The notes under the pieces were generated by a model. It made no database searches. It was not told the DNA's origin and saw only the letters and a list, made by a program, of their open reading frames with translations. From a virus: 64,000 nt of DNA. Below, piece after piece: positions 31,001 to 62,479 of the stretch; position 1 is the first letter of the stretch, and each line of letters opens with the position of its first letter. A program made the translations under genes and the position numbers. The stretch lies in the IMG/VR virus record IMGVR_UViG_3300018917_000003; one strand, given 5' to 3'.

Positions 31001-32401
31001 CAGGAAATAGCGCTGGAGGAACAGAAAAATGCCACGCTGCGATCACTCCCGGCATTCTCTGACCCCGCAAAAGAAGCTGAGCGTCAGTCCAGAATCCGGG
31101 CATCAGTCAAGAAAACGACTGAACTAAGACTTCAATTGATAGATGAAGAGAAGCGAGCCTTTGATTTGTTGATTGACCGCCAGATAAAAGGCATTCAAAA
31201 CCAATCTAGAGCGCAAGAACTAGCGTCTGACGTGCAGGTACGAGCAATCGAGCAACAGGGCAAGCAGTACGACTTACTCAGTCAATCGCTAGAGAACCAA
31301 AACAAGCTTCTGCAATCACGCGCAAGTTTGGCTAACGCGCTCAATGGATACATCCAAGGCGAATATAAAATTTTGCAGAACAGCGCGGGTTCTGAAGGTG
31401 AACGCAAGCGACTCATAAAAGAAGCCGCAGACGCCCAACTGGTAGCGATGCAACAGCAGCAAATCGTAGCACAGAAAAATCTTGACATTGAAATCAAGCA
31501 GGCAGAGATTGCTCAAAAACGCGCAGAGTTTGAGGCAGAGATTGCAGAGATAAAAGCCCGCGCCGGGTCAGCTAAGGCTGACGCTGAAGTTCTCAAGGCT
31601 GAAGCCACACTGCAAAAAGTACAGCGCGACCCCAACGCCAGCAATGCCGATGTAGAAGCCGCCAAACTGGATGTTGTAGCCGCCCGTGCCGCTGCGGAGG
31701 CTGCTGTTGCTGATATTGCTTTTGCGATCGCAAATAAAGAAATGGTCGGGCAGAACGGAAAAGTTCTGAAAGTACAGAACGACCTAAAACGGGAAACACA
31801 GTTGATCGAGCAAGTAACCCAAAGACGGGCGGCACAGGCGCAGGCGATCGAGGCAATAGTAGACGAGAATGAGAAAAAGCTGAGACAGCGCCAACTAGCG
31901 GGACGTTTAACACCGGAAGAGTCAGAACGACTGGCACGGATTCAACGCGAGAACCAGCAACGCGAAGCCACCAGGCGACGAGATGAAATAGAGCGAAACA
32001 CATTGATGGGGATTGTTACGCCTAATGGGGTACGGCGGGGGATTCAAGCGGCTGGAGTGCGATCGGCTTCGTTGCTAGGCGAAATCGAGCAAACTGCGGC
32101 GACAGCGCCCAAAGTGCCGGAGCTGAAAAATTTGGTTGCCCAGATGAATATACAGCGACAACAGATTGCCACGGTTAAACCGGATGTCAATCCACTTATC
32201 AGGTTACAGGAAGAAAGCACGGGATACCAGAAAGAGATGCTTGGGGTGCTCAAGCAGCTTAATGGGAAGCCGACCCCCGCGCCCGTGACTCCAGTTTCTA
32301 ATAGTTTCAATATCAAAGCAGAAGCGGGAATATCCGAGGCACAAGTGCTAGGCGTGTTTAGTCAGGTGAGTCAGCAGGTGACACAAATGTTGAAGCGCTA
32401 G
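25064..32401 (+). CDS. Tail tape measure protein (2445 aa)
   Basis: Very large, alpha-helical, Ala/Gln/Glu/Lys-rich. It has a hydrophobic Gly/Ala-rich segment (aa ~330-500) typical of TMPs and long tandem coiled-coil repeats. Confidence 0.85.
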   Translation: MASGINVIFSITDLASSALANVRSEMSRVASGITEASTALFFWSEAFGQIQVASSQFYDLFIGQNERMRQDILATQSSLAAVQDVYMNGIKLTDPTAAIQAFEAPIKKSLNQIAVDSLQLVGVTSGQLTDLFQVALTNATKITAQSKEFADPIKAAERLTISFAGAFGALGIPMEQAGQEMGSILTAQIDSNSVLAKGLGITNQQVSAWSSQGKLVDQLVGRLAPFVAGNALAAKSVGSILSNLQEIVEVTTRLSGEKLTDLFVESLDIIYQYLTSIQPQIQQTLDNVTGFIVGTVDTITKILLPFLPTFESIRDSILSIGGSLGEIAGGSFQLFLAGLTGIMPVLMPVFNLLGEILKVVSALLADPVIQQIVQFAIVVTAIAGPLATIATLMATISGLFAAGGSIGLFVTTLTIIAPQLAATVLTLVSAMASIAGFAGSAGAVVASGSAMAVLGSAITTVAVALGPLALAIAAVAAAAYAFQNAKAGDAAEALDTIGTRSDQSTTGANNTALKLRQLRDAEIIQGELTDEQKANQKALKTQATNYSAQIEADIAAAKAVDTVGNESLENAKQALVAGNQRSLDVLGKYVGGLSTSAKALAELGGIFTQTGNQVIGFEKQIKEATSDAEFQAANKGLAELINTQVESGQIGAEQGTKRLQQILSDTRVEIDGKEAALKALEAIQNLQLENELNANEIAQNEINKMREEGRIGEVKAEQELTDLKLKEIAAQSDSQKASHRERMRQIQEEMNTALEVLDKEIAQKQSNLDKLKSTNVPKVEIVQAERDLAKSKTARNTKQSEFVNIQSEQNDDNALKSAKLAAEAAKVEKQQRDLRKREALKDFDERQKINDSARERGLKDNQEAARESIQIAKGRAKLELSQIKDKTAKLEAEAKKQGKTVKEYDKEAWEALQVQQAEALQNLAKARKDGFEKRLSDIKQDAQEATAIVEAAQAKNEIDNQKAATKTAEIATKSINTQIALIAKEIAANKGNKERLEELNAKRAGLEKDLTEIQKKQLQQRLSDLQQDADERISVIKARNATGAIDNQQAAKQTAAIESASSKNQLQIVQSRIAEVVAADKKRGKVSTELLEELRKQESNTQVKITEITKKEMETRLADLKEDVAERTAVVKASQATGAINNQAAATQTATIERTGANQRLEIVRQQIQQVAAEGKKSGNINVELMETLRKQEAEIQVEITDIDKKAMESRLSDLQQDADERVAVIQAANALGTKENQQTAISTSQIQQKSANDQLKIVRERINTVIEEGKKSGKVNTELLEELRKKEADIQVKITEIQKQELQKRLSDLQQDAEERTAIITAANATGVLDNQEAATKTAKIQQSSLESQLKLIQQRIKTTNPASKELLEELRKQEADTQVKITEIQKQELQKRLTDLREDADERTALIAAANATGIIDNQQAAAKTAKVQQDGLNAELELVRKRISTVGTKNKELLEELRKQEADIQVKITEVQKQEMQKRLSDLEQDAAERIAIAESANAQGLLDNQQAAVATAKIQEASASKQIEIIRKRIDEIRAQGQKTGKVNIELLEELQAQEANAQKKIADIRKQFLQKQLADLQQDADERLSVVTAQNAKGDIDNQAAATRSSAIQKQNLDSQLTLIQNQLKVVGRTNKELREELLKQEADIQVKITEIQKQELQKRLSDLQQDSQERVSVVEAAAAIGEKDNQQTATEIENIQSQSVKNQLELIRERIAATSPLNKELNEELKAQESKLQKELTEIQEQGFQKRLSDLQQDGEERLAIVTSEGVRGLANNQETAIKSAAIQEESAEQQLALIREGLGQASSELREKLLKQEADTQAKIAEIRKQAFDKRLADVEQDGQEQQAILEGQLAQGLTTESEYAQGRYNQTLQFLDAQLVLIRERRSQMSVSDIEGQEALAAQETSLQKRRQDALSQFLEAQLSLLDRENKKATDLLEQSELDRKLITKQAALSGAADKDAAATAEIQATQRRIQQEIALEEQKNATLRSLPAFSDPAKEAERQSRIRASVKKTTELRLQLIDEEKRAFDLLIDRQIKGIQNQSRAQELASDVQVRAIEQQGKQYDLLSQSLENQNKLLQSRASLANALNGYIQGEYKILQNSAGSEGERKRLIKEAADAQLVAMQQQQIVAQKNLDIEIKQAEIAQKRAEFEAEIAEIKARAGSAKADAEVLKAEATLQKVQRDPNASNADVEAAKLDVVAARAAAEAAVADIAFAIANKEMVGQNGKVLKVQNDLKRETQLIEQVTQRRAAQAQAIEAIVDENEKKLRQRQLAGRLTPEESERLARIQRENQQREATRRRDEIERNTLMGIVTPNGVRRGIQAAGVRSASLLGEIEQTAATAPKVPELKNLVAQMNIQRQQIATVKPDVNPLIRLQEESTGYQKEMLGVLKQLNGKPTPAPVTPVSNSFNIKAEAGISEAQVLGVFSQVSQQVTQMLKR
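27783..30735 (+). repeat. Eleven tandem in-frame units (254-287 nt, about 85-95 aa each) inside the tape measure gene
   Basis: The motif (Q)KRLSDLQQDA(D/E)ER..V..A.NA.G..DNQ.AA..TA.IQ.. recurs with its KRLSDL core near nt 27860, 28122, 28405, 28692, 28977, 29240, 29503, 29788, 30052, 30318 and 30572. Confidence 0.9.
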
Positions 32402-32597
32402 AAGCGAGAGCTAATTGGCTTACTCAAATAGATGAGTCTGTCACGCAGATTATTTGTATTTTATATACTTCCTACGTGACAGACTCAACTATTACATTGT
32501 CGACTCTATTTGTATTTTACTTGATGAGGTTGATTGAGTTTTGAAAACAAAAACAAAACAGTCTCAGCGGGTAGAATGAAGAAATACTTCTCGCTTC
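32401..32597 (+). repeat. Structured intergenic element, copy A
   Basis: GAAGCGAGAG...CTTCTCGCTTC termini. Hairpin arms at 32431-32445 and 32475-32487. It begins on the last base of the tape measure TAG. Confidence 0.9.
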
Positions 32598-32743: not shown

Positions 32744-32953
32744 GAAGCGAGAGCAATTCCATCAAGGGGATGATCGCTTTTCTATGGATGAGTTTGTCAC
32801 GCAGATTATTTATATTTTATAACTTTCTACGTGACAAACTCATCTATTATGTCTTTGACTGTATCTACATTTTGACTGTAGAGGTTGTTTTAGTTTTGCA
32901 AGAGGAGATAAAACCAGTCTCAACAAGTGGAATAACTAATTTGCTCTCGCTTC
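32744..32953 (+). repeat. Structured intergenic element, copy B
   Basis: GAAGCGAGAG...CTCTCGCTTC termini. Hairpin 1 carries a compensated C-G to T-A change relative to copy A. Hairpin 2 arms at 32877-32887 and 32915-32925. Confidence 0.9.
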
Positions 32954-35080: not shown

Positions 35081-35282
35081 GAAGCGAGACAACACTTAAC
35101 TTGGTTATCATTACAGATGAGTCTGTCACTCAGTTATTTGTATTTTATAACTTTCCTACGTGACAGACTCATCTATTGTATTCTGGACTCTAGTTATCTT
35201 CCACCTGTACAGGTTGCTTTAGTTTTGAAAATAGAAATCGAAGAAACTTCAACAGGTAAGATAGACAAATTGCTCTCGCTTC
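35081..35282 (+). repeat. Structured intergenic element, copy C
   Basis: GAAGCGAGAC...CTCTCGCTTC termini. Perfect 14-bp hairpin GATGAGTCTGTCAC (35116-35129) / GTGACAGACTCATC (35160-35173) with a 30-nt loop. Confidence 0.9.
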
Positions 35283-49826: not shown

Positions 49827-49886
49827 GTGAGACAGGTACAAGTACGCCTCTTGTCGTCTTTTTTCGACAGGGCTTTTTTATGTCCT

Positions 49887-50084
49887 GAAGCGAGAGACAA
49901 TTTGTATAGGCTTATTGTTGAGCTTGTTGCTCAGATTTTTTATATTTATAATAATTCTACGTGACAAACTCATCTATTACATTGTCGCTTCTACTTACAT
50001 TCTGACTGTAGAGGTTGCTTTAGTTTTGAAAACAGAAATTAAACTAGCCTTAACAGGTGGAGCGAACAAAATGGCTCTTGCTTC
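49887..50084 (+). repeat. Structured intergenic element, copy D (left hairpin arm degenerate)
   Basis: GAAGCGAGAG...CTCTTGCTTC termini. The loop carries TATAAT. Hairpin 2 is conserved. Confidence 0.85.
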
Positions 50085-50749: not shown

Positions 50750-50997
50750 CACGCAAGAGTTAGAACTTAGATCTATTGTTAAGTTTAGATTATGAGTTCA
50801 TCGGTTCAAACTTTCCAATCGATTCAGGTTTATTGCTGAGGCTGTCACTCAGATTTTTATATTCTATATCTCTTCTACGTGACAGACTCATCTATTATAT
50901 CTTCGACTCTATGGATATTCCACCTGTAGAGCTTGATCGAGTTTTAAAAAAATCAGAGCGACCTCAACCAGTGGAATAGGTAAATGACTCTCGCTTT
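50750..50997 (+). repeat. Structured intergenic element, copy E (longer, divergent left end)
   Basis: Hairpin 1, its loop and hairpin 2 are conserved. The right end is CTCTCGCTTT. The left end GCAAGAGTTAGAACTTAG is shared with a solo fragment near 43750. Confidence 0.8.
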
Positions 50998-55644: not shown

Positions 55645-55847
55645 AGCGAGAAATCACTCAGGTTTGATCTACCTGTATAGATGAGCCTGTTACTCAGATT
55701 TTTTATATTTATAATATTTCTACGTGACAAACTCATGTATTAGGTTTCCAATTCTACCTACATCCTGACTGTAGAGGTCGATCAAGTTTTGAAAGTAAAA
55801 GTTAAACCAATCTCAACAGGTAGGATTGATAAATGACTCTCCCCTCT
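55643..55847 (+). repeat. Structured intergenic element, copy F (right terminus degenerate)
   Basis: GAAGCGAGAA left end. The loop carries TATAAT. Hairpin 2 CTGTAGAGGT / ATCTCAACAG is conserved. Confidence 0.85.
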
Positions 55848-59439: not shown

Positions 59440-59967
59440 ATGGATAAGAACCCTGATGAATTTAGACGGCTCAATCAACAGCTTGAGCATCTAAAAAAGA
59501 TGGTTGTCAGATATAAACAGGCTGAGAATTGGGAAAAATTGACCTTTAGTGATCGAGTCATGATTGACAACAGCGACTCGATCCACGACGGGGCGATCGG
59601 AAAATTCATAACTCATCAATGGAGTTCCAGCGGTTTCGTTTGCCTGTTGGTTGAATTTGAAGATGGTTCCCGGCATTACTATCTACCGATTCACCTTGTG
59701 AAACATTTTGACGTTGAGAAGATGACCGCGCAAGATTTGGAACCGCTACGCTCTAGACCAACACCCGCCCTCGTAGCAGAATCGGAACCGACGGCGACAA
59801 TCACACTGGATGAAGCGAGCGAGAGAATCATTGAGGCAAAACTGGCACAGGTTGTCAAAATGCCTGAGTCTGTCAGAAAGAAAGTTTTGTCCAGCACCCT
59901 CGCAGCCGAATTAGTACCCCAAGCGCTTGAGCTTGCCGTCAAGCGAGGCATCATTCCAGCTTTCTAG
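59440..59967 (+). CDS. Hypothetical protein
   Basis: 175-aa ORF. GGAGAATCAAAATG provides an SD. Confidence 0.55.
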   Translation: MDKNPDEFRRLNQQLEHLKKMVVRYKQAENWEKLTFSDRVMIDNSDSIHDGAIGKFITHQWSSSGFVCLLVEFEDGSRHYYLPIHLVKHFDVEKMTAQDLEPLRSRPTPALVAESEPTATITLDEASERIIEAKLAQVVKMPESVRKKVLSSTLAAELVPQALELAVKRGIIPAF

Positions 59968-59990
59968 TCAATCATCCCAAAAAACTATCA

Positions 59991-60016
59991 GACGGGCCGT
60001 TAGACCCGTCTTTTTT
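59991..60016 (+). terminator. Intrinsic terminator
   Basis: GACGGG-CCGTTAGA-CCCGTC followed by TTTTTT. Confidence 0.8.
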
Positions 60017-60021
60017 AGTTT

Positions 60022-60214
60022 GAGGCGAGAGAAGTTTTGCTGAATCCTATAGATGAGTCTGTCACTCAGATTTTTTATATTTATAATCTTCCTACGTGAC
60101 AAGCTCATCTATTGTATTGTCGCTTCTATCTGCATTCTGATTGTAGAGGTCGATCGAGTTTTGAAAATAGAAATCAAAACTGCCTCAGCAAATAAGAAAA
60201 ACAGATTGCTCCCG
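60022..60214 (+). repeat. Structured intergenic element, copy H
   Basis: GAGGCGAGAG left end. Hairpin arms at 60052-60065 and 60096-60109. TATAAT at 60082-60087. The right terminus is degenerate (TTGCTCCCG). Confidence 0.85.
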
Positions 60215-60266
60215 TTTTTCTATCCGCTCTCCCAAAAATCAATATAAACATATTTCATCTACAGGG

Positions 60267-60295
60267 TTGACATCAAGCGTTAGTCATGTTATCTT
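60267..60295 (+). promoter_or_regulatory. Sigma70-like promoter candidate upstream of tnpB
   Basis: TTGACA (60267-60272), 17-nt spacer, TATCTT (60290-60295). The preceding GGG matches the GGGGTTGACA blocks at 52652 and 53716. Confidence 0.45.
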
Positions 60296-60531
60296 ATAAA
60301 AAGAAAGTTGAAAATATAGAAGCTACAAAAGCTTTTTAAGCTTTTGACAGTTCAGGCATAAACTCTGAGAGGTAGGATACCGAAAGGATACAAACCAGAG
60401 GAAAGTGCTTAAAACTCTGACAGCGACTAGACAGGTAACTAACTGAAAAGCTGAAAGCAATTCTTGCTAGACACTAAAAGTATCACAACGGTGCAAAATG
60501 TAATCAAGTAATACAATACTGAGGTCAAACG

Positions 60532-61608
60532 ATGCTTTTGTCCATCAAAACAAAGTTAAAACTAAACAAGGATCAGGAAACAATTATGAGCAAACACGCT
60601 GGGATAGCGCGGTTTACTTATAATTGGGGCTTGGCTACTTGGAATAGTCTTTATCAAAATGGACTAAAGCCTAATAAAAATCTACTCAAAAAATTCTTCA
60701 ACAATCATGTAAAGACTGAGCTTGCATGGATGAAGGAAACGGGAATTTGTCAGAAAATAACTCAATACGCTTTTGACCATCTAGGGGATGCGTTTGCTAG
60801 ATTTTTTGCCAAAAGAAGTGATTATCCCAAGTTTAAAAAGAAAGGGCATTATGACTCTTTTACTATTGATACGGGCGGTAGACCTATCCCTGTGGGCGGT
60901 ACATCTATAAAGTTGCCGACAATCGGTTGGGTAAAAACTCACGAAGGGTTGCCTCATACAACTTGCAAGTCAATTACCATCTCGCGCACTGCCAATAGTT
61001 GGTTTATTGCGTTTGCTTACGAACAAGAACACGAGCCAACTGCTAAGAAGCATGATGTTGTAGGAGTTGACTTGGGAATTAAAGAATTGGCTACGCTTTC
61101 AACTGGTGTAGTATTCCAAAACCCAAAACACTATAAAACGCATCTTGCAAAACTCAAGAGATTGTCAAAAGTTTTCGCTAGGAAGGTAAAAGGTTCTGAA
61201 AATAGGCATAAAGCCAAAATTCAATTAGCAAGGCATCACGCTAAGATAGCAAATCTCAGAAAAAATACCTTGCACCAAATCACTACTTACTTATGCAAAA
61301 ACCACGCAAAAATAGTAGTAGAAGATTTGAACGTTTCTGGGATGCTAAAAAATCACAATCTAGCTCAAGTAATAGCTGATTGCGGGTTTTATGAGTTTAA
61401 GCGCCAATTGGAATATAAAGCTAAAAAATTTGGTTGTGAGATAATCGTTGCTGATCGCTGGTTTCCGTCAAGCAAGACCTGTTCAAATTGCGGACATATT
61501 CAAGATATGCCGTTAAAAGAAAGAACTTACGACTGCGGAAGTTGTGGTCATTCGATGGATAGAGATTTAAACGCAGCAATAAATTTATCGCGGTTGGTCA
61601 AATCGTGA
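60532..61608 (+). CDS. tnpB: TnpB (OrfB) RNA-guided nuclease, RuvC motifs intact
   Basis: 358 aa. RuvC-I VGVDLG, RuvC-II IVVEDL, zinc finger CSNCGH..CGSCGH, RuvC-III DRDLNAAINL. Confidence 0.9.
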   Translation: MLLSIKTKLKLNKDQETIMSKHAGIARFTYNWGLATWNSLYQNGLKPNKNLLKKFFNNHVKTELAWMKETGICQKITQYAFDHLGDAFARFFAKRSDYPKFKKKGHYDSFTIDTGGRPIPVGGTSIKLPTIGWVKTHEGLPHTTCKSITISRTANSWFIAFAYEQEHEPTAKKHDVVGVDLGIKELATLSTGVVFQNPKHYKTHLAKLKRLSKVFARKVKGSENRHKAKIQLARHHAKIANLRKNTLHQITTYLCKNHAKIVVEDLNVSGMLKNHNLAQVIADCGFYEFKRQLEYKAKKFGCEIIVADRWFPSSKTCSNCGHIQDMPLKERTYDCGSCGHSMDRDLNAAINLSRLVKS

Positions 61609-61690
61609 AACCTTACCGAGGGATAACCGCTCCCATGCTCCCAATGAAGTAAGAAGCAAAAACTAGATTTGTCTAGTATTTGTCTGACAG
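61450..61690 (+). ncRNA. Putative omega-RNA (reRNA) scaffold overlapping the tnpB 3' end and right end
   Basis: By analogy with characterised TnpB systems. The segment 61588-61690 is conserved in a second copy and ends in a CTAGA-TTTG-TCTAG hairpin. Extent not determined. Confidence 0.4.
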
Positions 61691-61750
61691 ATGAAGGTGT
61701 AGCGGATTTTACTTTTGATATCAGTTTATCTGGTGGTGCAAAAAATGTTA

Positions 61751-61853
61751 TTGCGGTTGGCTAAACCGTGAAAGCTTACTGAGGGATAACCGCTCCCATG
61801 CTCCCGTTGAAGTAAGAAGCAAATGCTAGCTTTGTCTAGTCTTTGTATAGCAG
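61751..61853 (+). repeat. Solo second copy of the tnpB 3' terminus / right end (about 85 percent identical to 61588-61690)
   Basis: It retains the last ~8 codons and TGA of a tnpB (LLRLAKP* versus LSRLVKS*) plus the downstream ~80 nt, 163 nt after the first copy. Confidence 0.85.
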
Positions 61854-61933
61854 AGGGTCTAAAAAACCAAACCGAGACAGACGAATTACAAGCGGAACCA
61901 ACCAAAACAATTATTAGAGGCGTATGGATCTAA

Positions 61934-62479
61934 ATGACTACCAGTGCAGCAAAAGAGAAGAATGCAACAACTAAGCGAGGGAGGAAAGCTGGAAAAAAGA
62001 CAGCAAAAAAACGTCAATTAGTTGACGAGATTATCAAAGCGGAACCCAAAAAACGTGGCAGAAAGCCCAAAGATGCAGACTTTCAACCAATCAACAGAGG
62101 GGTTAAAAAAGTCAATTTAGGGCATAGGGCTGTTCTGGCGAAGCACCTAGGTGTCTCAACTCAGACTATATACAACCGCGAAAGGGCTTTCGACAAATGT
62201 TTGCCGGAATATTTTAGGGGGATGTATTACCTGCCTAAAAGAGGGGGGGCATTAAAAGTTCTTCCCGATTTAACCCCTTACCAACAATACTGCCAGATGC
62301 AGTTTGAGAAGATAAAGCAGGGTTTGGGTGTCAAGGACTGCACCCCAAGTGAGATGCTTATCTCTAATAATTTAGAGATATTTGATATCAACCTGTTTGA
62401 AAGACAACAGCAACTAACTGTTAGTGTAGAAGTTGATTCAATTTCCATTGAGGAAATTGAAAAAACGGATATTCTTTAA
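61934..62479 (+). CDS. Hypothetical basic protein with an HTH-like segment
   Basis: 181 aa. Lys/Arg-rich N-terminus. LAKHLGVSTQTIYNRERAF is HTH-like. Confidence 0.5.
   Translation: MTTSAAKEKNATTKRGRKAGKKTAKKRQLVDEIIKAEPKKRGRKPKDADFQPINRGVKKVNLGHRAVLAKHLGVSTQTIYNRERAFDKCLPEYFRGMYYLPKRGGALKVLPDLTPYQQYCQMQFEKIKQGLGVKDCTPSEMLISNNLEIFDINLFERQQQLTVSVEVDSISIEEIEKTDIL

Follow-up and report, generated by a model that had tools for sequence, protein, structure and literature searches.

An IS607-family tnpB block with a duplicated right end in the leader of a cyanophage operon, a candidate guide-RNA cassette

The 64,000-nucleotide (nt) stretch of DNA analysed here in its whole length (hereafter the window) is held in IMG/VR as virus record IMGVR_UViG_3300018917_000003 and comes from a tailed cyanophage, with PHROGs matches to a portal, a head-maturation protease and a major head protein, and with a large protein that has distant matches in Nodularia and Aphanizomenon phages. 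The 5' leader of an operon of this phage carries an inserted block derived from an insertion sequence (IS) of the IS607 family, lying in the same orientation as the operon and consisting of a trace of the transposase gene tnpA, an intact gene for the nuclease TnpB and two copies of the right end of the element, RE1 and RE2, separated by a short spacer. The locus had been described from its sequence in a preliminary description as a tnpB-only element with a second, solo copy of its 3' end; the present analysis addresses the family and the boundaries of this element, the state of its two right ends and the probable source of a guide RNA (omega-RNA).

Contigs of the same phage genome reach 111 kb in length, and the phage is present in samples of the JGI 3300018757, 3300018933, 3300018946 and 3300018906 series and in the SRR58554xx runs. 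Over positions 59960-62000 of the window, ten independently assembled contigs (JGI, ENA and Logan) show 100% identity wherever they overlap it, and an eleventh (L090) differs by a single base across the locus. Since the independent assemblies agree, the repeat structure is real and an assembly artefact is ruled out. Among GenBank phage records there is no DNA match to the locus and none to the right end, while neither relatives of the neighbouring phage genes nor the pattern of the empty insertion site were found in IMG/VR. No tRNA gene was found.

The gene tnpB (60532-61608, plus strand) is an intact open reading frame (ORF) of 358 amino acids (aa). Its product retains the RuvC residues D180, E264 and D345 in the motifs GVDLG, VVEDL and DRDLN, which align with the catalytic motifs of the ISDra2 TnpB, and the zinc-finger cysteines 317/320 (CSNC) and 335/338 (CGSC). 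The protein aligns over its full length with the TnpB of ISDra2 (8EXA/8BF8; 1e-49) and with the IS607 TnpB of ISFba1 (8IAZ; 4e-48), carries the Pfam domains HTH_OrfB_IS605, OrfB_IS605 (95.7, cut-off 30.5) and Cas12f1-like_TNB (86.6, cut-off 26.3), and scores 303.5 bits with the NCBIfam model NF040570 for guided_TnpB (cut-off 100); the top-scoring NCBIfam model is IS200_TnpB, yet the score is under the cut-off of that model. Motif alignment and family thresholds therefore bear out the earlier description of a 358-aa TnpB with its RuvC triad and CxxC..CxxC finger intact. A TnpB of the pro-Fanzor type, defined by a DPG motif in RuvC-I and a catalytic Glu relocated next to the zinc finger (PMC10711439, PMC13565253), was rejected, as the window has GVDLG and not DPG, and E264 is in its canonical place, 53 residues before the first CxxC.

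Comparison with the nearest relatives gives a dN/dS of 0.06 at a dS of about 1, and two of 139 near-invariant residues deviate in the window copy, as against 0-6 in the relatives. On these figures TnpB is judged to be constrained and not decayed. The closest protein found in a search among 5.8 billion proteins is 87% identical; TnpB is at least 13% diverged from every known copy and so was not newly copied from any sampled host element. The protein would perform RNA-guided cleavage dependent on a target-adjacent motif (TAM), the TAM being read from insertion sites only.

The 313 TnpB relatives identified occur in filamentous cyanobacteria such as Microcoleus, Plectonema, Nostoc and Scytonema. 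In full-length relatives the homology reaches 733 nt upstream of the tnpB start codon and spans a 220-aa tnpA gene; with the IS607 transposase model NF033518 the tnpA product of relative L056 scores 206 bits (cut-off 110), and it has Resolvase and MerR domains. By this relationship the element is assigned as a derivative of the IS607 (serine recombinase) family, though not a complete IS607 element, and an IS605-type element (IS200/IS605, with a Y1/HUH TnpA) is ruled out because the relatives carry the IS607 serine transposase. Derivatives with tnpB only are common within the family; they are internal deletion derivatives that keep a left end of 70-90 nt, fused at varying points upstream of tnpB. 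The left end of the family has two TAGACAA motifs and the right end two TTGTCTAG motifs, the inverse of TAGACAA, and by likeness to IS607 ends (PMC6188088) the latter are probably transposase-binding repeats. The left end is preceded in the relatives by the junction motif D-G-A-G (D-G-A-G|CTAGT). For the right end, 78 related right ends from fetched cyanobacterial loci were compared, and in 76 relatives the similarity stops sharply at ...TATAGCAG, with unrelated sequence thereafter. The terminal CTAG..TCTAG hairpin proposed earlier is accordingly reinterpreted as the pair of TTGTCTAG subterminal repeats, the copies ending about 14 nt beyond it.

Little of the left side of such an element is present in the phage. 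The first 33-37 nt of the block are tnpA-like and, with the spacer between tnpA and tnpB, make up positions 60495-60531 (plus strand), which align with the tnpA 3' ends of relatives L004, L005 and L077; these last ~11 codons are all that remains of the transposase gene. The absence of tnpA stated in the preliminary description holds, since tblastx with the tnpA region of a relative gave no match in the window, and the left end likewise has no BLAST match anywhere in the window. The subterminal repeats of the right end are found twice, each time with TTGTCTAG x2 and with the inner motif short of one T in both copies. As the left end and the serine-recombinase gene are gone, the block cannot transpose by itself.

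The boundaries of the block are provided by related phages. Eleven related-phage loci share the flanking genes without the tnpB insertion, and their intergenic region aligns to positions 60218-60494 of the window and resumes at 61852-61854. Because insertion-free phages align up to both edges, 60495-61853 is a single inserted block of 1,359 nt. Its left junction, ...CACAACGGTGC|AAAATGTAATC... (...GGTGC|AAAATG), lies at 60494|60495 with a 2-nt GC ambiguity, and its right junction reads ...TATAGCAG|AGGGTCTAAAAAACC... (TATAGCAG|AGGGTC). Alignment of other genomic copies, which had been proposed as the way to define the ends, fixes both the right terminus TATAGCAG and the block edges, and it shifts the element's start. 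A start at 60250 had been given, whereas 60218-60494 comprise a phage promoter and leader and IS-derived DNA begins only at about 60495; positions 60250-60531 were considered as a left end and rejected, being phage backbone conserved in the insertion-free relatives, with no left-end homology in the window. The element is also not directly downstream of copy H of an intergenic repeat (60010-60217), as had been stated, since 277 nt of phage promoter and leader intervene.

The site of insertion is identical in all insertion-free loci, which read ...(hairpin)TGCGAG|AGG.... The empty site is GCG-AG|AGGGTC and the filled site TATAGC-AG|AGGGTC; set beside the left junctions found in relatives (D-G-A-G|CTAGT), they indicate that insertion took place by a crossover at the AG dinucleotide after a ...GAG motif, in the IS607 mode and with no target duplication. 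IS607 elements recombine at matching dinucleotides (PMC10711439), the crossover dinucleotide reported for most members being GG (PMC13565253) and not AG as here, and the ...GAG motif is similar to the G-rich TAMs AGGAG and GAGGG known from characterised IS607 TnpBs (PMC11061315). Later losses have removed the GAG together with the left end and almost the whole of tnpA, with the left breakpoint at most 3 nt from the original insertion point and GC shared at the junction; an incomplete integration repaired by microhomology is one possibility.

In the 71 right ends that were aligned, RNAalifold predicts two helices with abundant compensatory changes. The helix cells are paired in 98.2% of cases, compared with 34-51% when the partners are slid, two-sided changes number 78 cells as against 12 at most with slid partners, and none of 500 shuffles reaches the observed covariation score. 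Helix 2 (GCTTAC/GTAAG) is 100% paired, four of its five pairs covary, and lineages carry variants such as GCTTGC/GCAAG, GTCTAC/GTAGA and GCTTTC/GAAAG. The right end encodes a structured RNA, and this RNA is most likely an omega-RNA scaffold, in agreement with the earlier proposal that the repeated segment contains such a scaffold. In longer alignments RNAalifold paired the tnpB coding region with the GTCTAG motifs without compensatory changes, and this pairing is not relied upon. No Rfam family reaches its gathering score over the whole window, nor is there any at E<=10 for 60400-62000; a guide RNA of the RAGATH-18 type known from IS607 was rejected for want of a match to an Rfam covariance model.

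Lineage-specific hairpin insertions were observed in the guide-RNA region of relatives L046, L049, L060, L068 and L078-L080 (~45 nt), L016 (~100 nt), and L019, L024 and L042 (24 nt). Those of one type, which have a long stem that appears to covary by eye, are placed at the tnpB 3' end between AATTT and TATCGCG; another type directly follows stem 1. Such insertions show where the scaffold tolerates expansion.

The recurrence of the tnpB 3' end 163 nt downstream, as first described, is confirmed in the form of a direct repeat of 114 nt with 84% identity (61578-61691 and 61741-61854); a pattern demanding both of the 23-nt cores had one match in the window and none in 100 shuffles. RE1 (61590-61690, plus strand), the right end attached to tnpB, keeps the covarying stems 1 and 2. 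It is followed by a spacer of 44 nt (61691-61734, plus strand), which would be the RE1 guide and to which nothing alike was found in the IS family, the phage backbone or the collections searched; an origin as phage backbone was rejected, there being no significant similarity. RE2 (61735-61853, plus strand), formerly regarded as a 'solo' copy, begins about 17 nt upstream of stem 1, within a former tnpB 3' end, and is otherwise a complete canonical right end. Folding gives one and the same three-hairpin form for the two copies; their GGGATAACCGCTCCCATGCTCCC core is identical, and both lack the T of the inner GTCTAG motif (alignment column 95), which could be due to shared ancestry or to parallel loss. 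A minus-strand ORF of 59 aa (61726-61905) runs over RE2 and the junction and is probably spurious.

The two copies had been treated as equal, and in this respect the picture changes. Of 65 alignment columns with a conservation of 97% or more in 69 relatives, RE1 deviates at seven and RE2 at one, individual relatives showing 0-3 deviations. RE1 ends at 61690 in TCTGACAG, while RE2 ends at 61853 in the canonical TATAGCAG; the altered RE1 end disrupts two out of five base pairs in a terminal stem which is otherwise kept whole in 70 of the 71 sequences. Identity to the right ends of the Microcoleus elements L004 and L005 is 95% for RE2 and 87% for RE1, and that between the two window copies is 85%. 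RE2 is, on this comparison, taken as the true right boundary of the block at the junction with phage DNA, and RE1 as a degenerate copy.

A recent local tandem duplication was rejected as the origin of the repeat, since the copies are only 85% identical and their flanks are unrepeated. The arrangement is also rare. No second right end lies closer than ~3 kb to any of the 78 related ones, and two scans of metagenome contigs revealed no tandem right ends at core-to-core gaps of 95-155 nt, in a collection that also lacked this phage. It looks like a scar rather than an array. In the simplest history, which is uncertain, RE1 and its former flank would already have been internal when the composite last integrated by way of RE2, with RE1 decaying since; this order of events is favoured by the canonical terminus of RE2 at the outer boundary, by the mutated end of RE1 and by the foreign nature of the spacer. 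A scenario in which two elements reached this phage site separately agrees less well with a spacer that does not derive from the phage and with a supposed older relic that is the better preserved of the two copies. The preliminary suggestion of a scar left by a nested or adjacent insertion comes close to this composite, although its details are revised in that RE2 is the canonical copy and RE1 the decayed one.

The opposite assignment, with RE1 working and RE2 the relic of an older element that had decayed to its last ~120 nt before the tnpB-RE1 element landed beside it or recombined into it, is quite unlikely. RE1 does occupy the canonical position over the tnpB stop codon, RE2 starts within a tnpB 3' end as a truncated copy would and is nearer than RE1 to the L004/L005 lineage, and an echo of the left junction, GGTGC-AAAATGTAAT, is present at the 5' edge of RE2 as GGTGC-AAAAAATGTTAT. 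However, more decay would be expected in the relic than in the working copy, contrary to what is observed; the echo (GGTGC-AAAA-ATGT) is weak, 165 of 5000 shuffles reaching its score; the spacer is not phage backbone, so that tnpB-RE1 was no simple insertion into phage DNA beside RE2; and the T lost from both copies hints at common descent and not at independent arrivals.

The 16-20 nt past each right end, for which a search of other genomes had been suggested, gave a different outcome for the two copies. The predicted guide of an RE2-derived omega-RNA (61854-61873, plus strand) directly follows the terminus and consists of the first 20 nt of the interrupted leader, AGGGTCTAAAAAACCAAACC. In the empty sites of related phages this 20-nt sequence stands after GCGAG with no mismatch (L098), one mismatch (L104 and L105) or two mismatches (L097), whereas in the phage's own genome it is preceded by GCAG, so that the C at position -3 would presumably confer self-protection. 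For RE1, the first 18-20 nt past the terminus (ATGAAGGTGTAGCGGATT, 61691-61708) gave matches to three GC-rich IMG/VR contigs (L101 6612-6629, L102 4817-4834 and L103 4190-4207), all in one homologous coding motif (reverse strand EIRYTFI) and none of the three with GAG upstream. These are judged to be chance matches, their number being about that expected by chance, and a search of the plasmid database with the RE1 guide gave no match.

The possibility that both copies yield working guide RNAs, the spacer and the phage leader serving as the two guides of a minimal two-unit array, has some features in its favour: the covarying stems and the core are present in both, both copies are on one probable transcript, and TnpB can process omega-RNA from a longer RNA (PMC10278001). 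Against it stand the seven deviations of RE1 at near-invariant positions, two of them in the invariant stem adjoining the guide, an RE1 guide without a meaningful target, and the lack of tandem right ends both near the 78 recovered right ends and in the metagenomes at the gaps scanned. The earlier idea of two scaffolds with two guides is hence considered improbable, and it is very improbable that RE1, spacer and RE2 form a working array with an inner guide (61691 onward) that is not set by the present insertion site.

The reading to which the evidence leans, if by a little, is that RE2 is the source of the guide RNA, that the cassette could act as a homing or gene-drive unit, and that RE1 and the spacer are relics. 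The phage promoter at 60267 would drive a read-through transcript; since there is no strong terminator between this promoter and the 181-aa gene downstream, tnpB, RE1, RE2 and the rest of the leader probably belong to one transcript, from which TnpB would be translated. TnpB makes omega-RNA from its own mRNA (PMC10278001). Here, it would excise an omega-RNA from the RE2 region with the next ~20 nt of phage leader, AGGGTCTAAAAAACCAAACC, as the guide; RE2 is expected to be the working guide RNA because it is conserved and adjoins phage DNA. The resulting ribonucleoprotein would spare its own genome, where the target follows ...GCAG and not the ...GAG insertion/TAM motif of the family, and would cut co-infecting relatives with an uninterrupted site (GCGAG and a target with 0-2 mismatches). 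Repair of a cut by recombination may then transfer a copy of the cassette to the relative (homing, gene drive), or the competitor may simply be damaged. RE1 and the spacer would most likely be a former right end with its flank, which stayed inside the composite as it made its last move by way of RE2. TnpB has been reported to drive IS-positive plasmids to fixation without TnpA (bioRxiv 10.1101/2025.02.20.638934), and 'non-restorative homing' into co-infecting phages or plasmids has been listed as a class (PMC13565253).

Several points weigh against this reading. The match of the guide to the empty allele is an automatic outcome of any such insertion and no evidence of function. The cassette is found in one phage lineage only, its carriers being effectively identical; it is present in none of the diverged phages, and nothing points to its spread. 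At position -4 the phage site has C, where 21 relatives have A, T or G. RE1 retains both covarying stems and the core and is thus not certainly dead, the 44-nt spacer is foreign to the IS family and to the phage backbone alike, and the left breakpoint falls no more than 3 nt from where the element first inserted. The full scaffold may, moreover, need sequence outside RE2, which extends just ~17 nt beyond stem 1 on the upstream side, since a pairing of the tnpB coding region with the GTCTAG motifs is predicted, if without compensatory changes, and hairpin insertions occur directly upstream in some relatives. The inner GTCTAG motif of RE2 is also short of its T.

Some of these points would equally suit an inert scar, i.e. 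a dead and immobilised fragment that hitchhikes in the phage genome, with TnpB and RE2 intact through slow evolution of the family or a fairly recent capture. The restriction to one lineage, with 11 related loci free of the block, the loss of the left end and tnpA, the continuing decay of RE1, the automatic guide-target match and the commonness of tnpB copies in phages (384 GenBank phage records) all speak for it. It is a possible but less likely account, as TnpB shows no excess of change at conserved residues (2/139 against 0-6), and a neutral relic as old as its protein divergence of at least 13% and dS of about 1 imply should be broken. RE2, furthermore, keeps 64 of the 65 near-invariant positions where RE1, 163 nt away, has lost seven, which argues for selection on RE2.

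The block is set between phage features that were retained on both sides. A promoter-like site found by a scan (60267-60295, plus strand; TTGACA-17-TATCTT with TG) belongs to the phage backbone and not to the IS, and GGGTTGACATCAA is conserved in related phages L095, L097, L099 and L100, where its placement with respect to the downstream gene is unchanged. The first part of the phage 5' leader (60296-60494, plus strand), ending in ...CACAACGGTGC, is homologous to the leader of the insertion-free phages, and the rest of the leader continues after the guide into the 181-aa gene of the downstream operon (61934-62479; together 61874-62479, plus strand). The insertion has moved the promoter of the operon upstream by 1.36 kb. 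No terminator-like site was found on the plus strand between 60295 and 61934 other than a weak one inside tnpB (60597-60609).

The leader contains two similar motifs, CTGAGAGGT-hairpin-ACAAACCAGA at 60365-60399 and GCGAGAGG(G)T-hairpin-AAACCGRG at 61852-61878. The second hairpin covaries across L095, L097-L100 and L104-L109 (GGGTC/GACC, GGTAT/ATAC and GGTAC/GTAC), which suggests a conserved regulatory RNA before the 181-aa gene, and the IS insertion point lies exactly between GAG and this hairpin. Other genes, unrelated to tnpB and on the minus strand, occur in the same intergenic region of L095 (2228-3241, 336 aa, with a weak HTH_3 match) and L105 (2009-2812, 267 aa); the region is, therefore, a hotspot for cargo.

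The intergenic repeat family mentioned above is separate from the tnpB block. Its copies of ~170 nt all have one orientation, are 76-83% identical and contain an internal inverted repeat each (e.g. 60043-60065/60096-60118); they lie at 32401-32568, 32782-32952, 35112-35281, 49873-50043, 50831-50950, 55676-55806 and 60010-60217, and the related phage L097 also has copies (263-372 and 2362-2421).

Two plasmid-borne relatives of tnpB were observed in other settings. A unit of tnpB and right end on a plasmid of Nostoc sp. UHCC 0870 (L001; NZ_CP091914.1, 63583-64701; 79% identity), whose homology to the window begins only at the tnpB start codon, is flanked on one side by a RAMP-superfamily CRISPR-associated gene and a hypothetical gene, and on the opposite side by a WYL-domain gene. 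A 5' fragment of tnpB of ~90 codons on a Dolichospermum plasmid (L002; NZ_CP043059.1, 35733-36002) is annotated as a stand-alone 'helix-turn-helix domain-containing protein'.

If the proposed mechanism is true, the locus represents a natural transposase-less cassette of TnpB and guide RNA kept by a phage, and the filled and empty alleles in phages are material for testing TnpB homing or drive between co-infecting phages, as shown for plasmids. The analysis also offers a covariation-supported scaffold for a large uncharacterised cyanobacterial IS607 TnpB family that is absent from Rfam, and the presence of a conserved and a decaying scaffold copy at one locus marks the positions that matter. 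Apart from these points, the locus is an ordinary transposon remnant with a mildly unusual scar.

Among known systems, the IS607 TnpBs of ISFba1 (PDB 8IAZ) and ISXfa1 are comparable in having a homologous TnpB (4e-48 to 8IAZ) and, in the full-length relatives of the window element, a serine-recombinase tnpA. In IS607 TnpB systems, as here, the guide-RNA scaffold spans the tnpB 3' end and the right end, and insertion occurs at a matching dinucleotide beside a G-rich ...GAG motif (PMC10711439, PMC11061315). The window differs from them in an RNA that falls outside RAGATH-18 and every Rfam family, in ending in AG where most members have GG, and in lacking tnpA and the left end while having its right end duplicated. 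The TnpB/omega-RNA system of ISDra2 (IS200/IS605; PDB 8EXA, 8H1J) shares the architecture with the canonical D-E-D residues and zinc finger (1e-49); however, the partner transposase in the relatives of the window element is a serine recombinase and not a Y1 HUH enzyme, and the ends carry TAGACAA/TTGTCTAG repeats in place of IS605-type hairpins.

The GenBank phage records that match TnpB, all at 48% identity or less, include Microcystis phage Ma-LMM01 and Nodularia phages. Like the tnpB genes of cyanophages A-1(L), Ma-LMM01, MaMV-DC (the latter two of Microcystis) and Nodularia phages, the window gene is phage-borne and of cyanobacterial origin (bioRxiv 10.64898/2026.02.14.705889). The right end of its family is, however, absent from GenBank phage records, and the tnpB of A-1(L) is identical to host copies (bioRxiv 10.64898/2026.02.14.705889), whereas the window TnpB is diverged from every known one; Ma-LMM01 has an integrase-resolvase annotated at the matching locus, where the window copy is without a transposase.

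Two scaffold copies with a short unrelated 'spacer', downstream of a gene for a Cas12-like nuclease, recall the CRISPR-Cas12 arrays of the descendants of TnpB. The window has only two units of ~115 nt with 85% identity, of which the inner is degenerate, no adaptation genes and no recurrence of the arrangement. A working two-unit array would, if real, represent a natural halfway stage, maintained by a phage, from a transposon nuclease with a fixed guide to a CRISPR-Cas12 array. The TnpB gene drive of plasmids was demonstrated as such, while at the present locus a filled allele and matching empty alleles only are seen. With that drive, and with the free-standing homing endonucleases of phages, the cassette has in common a nuclease gene placed beside its own protected site, the product of which would cut the uninterrupted allele.

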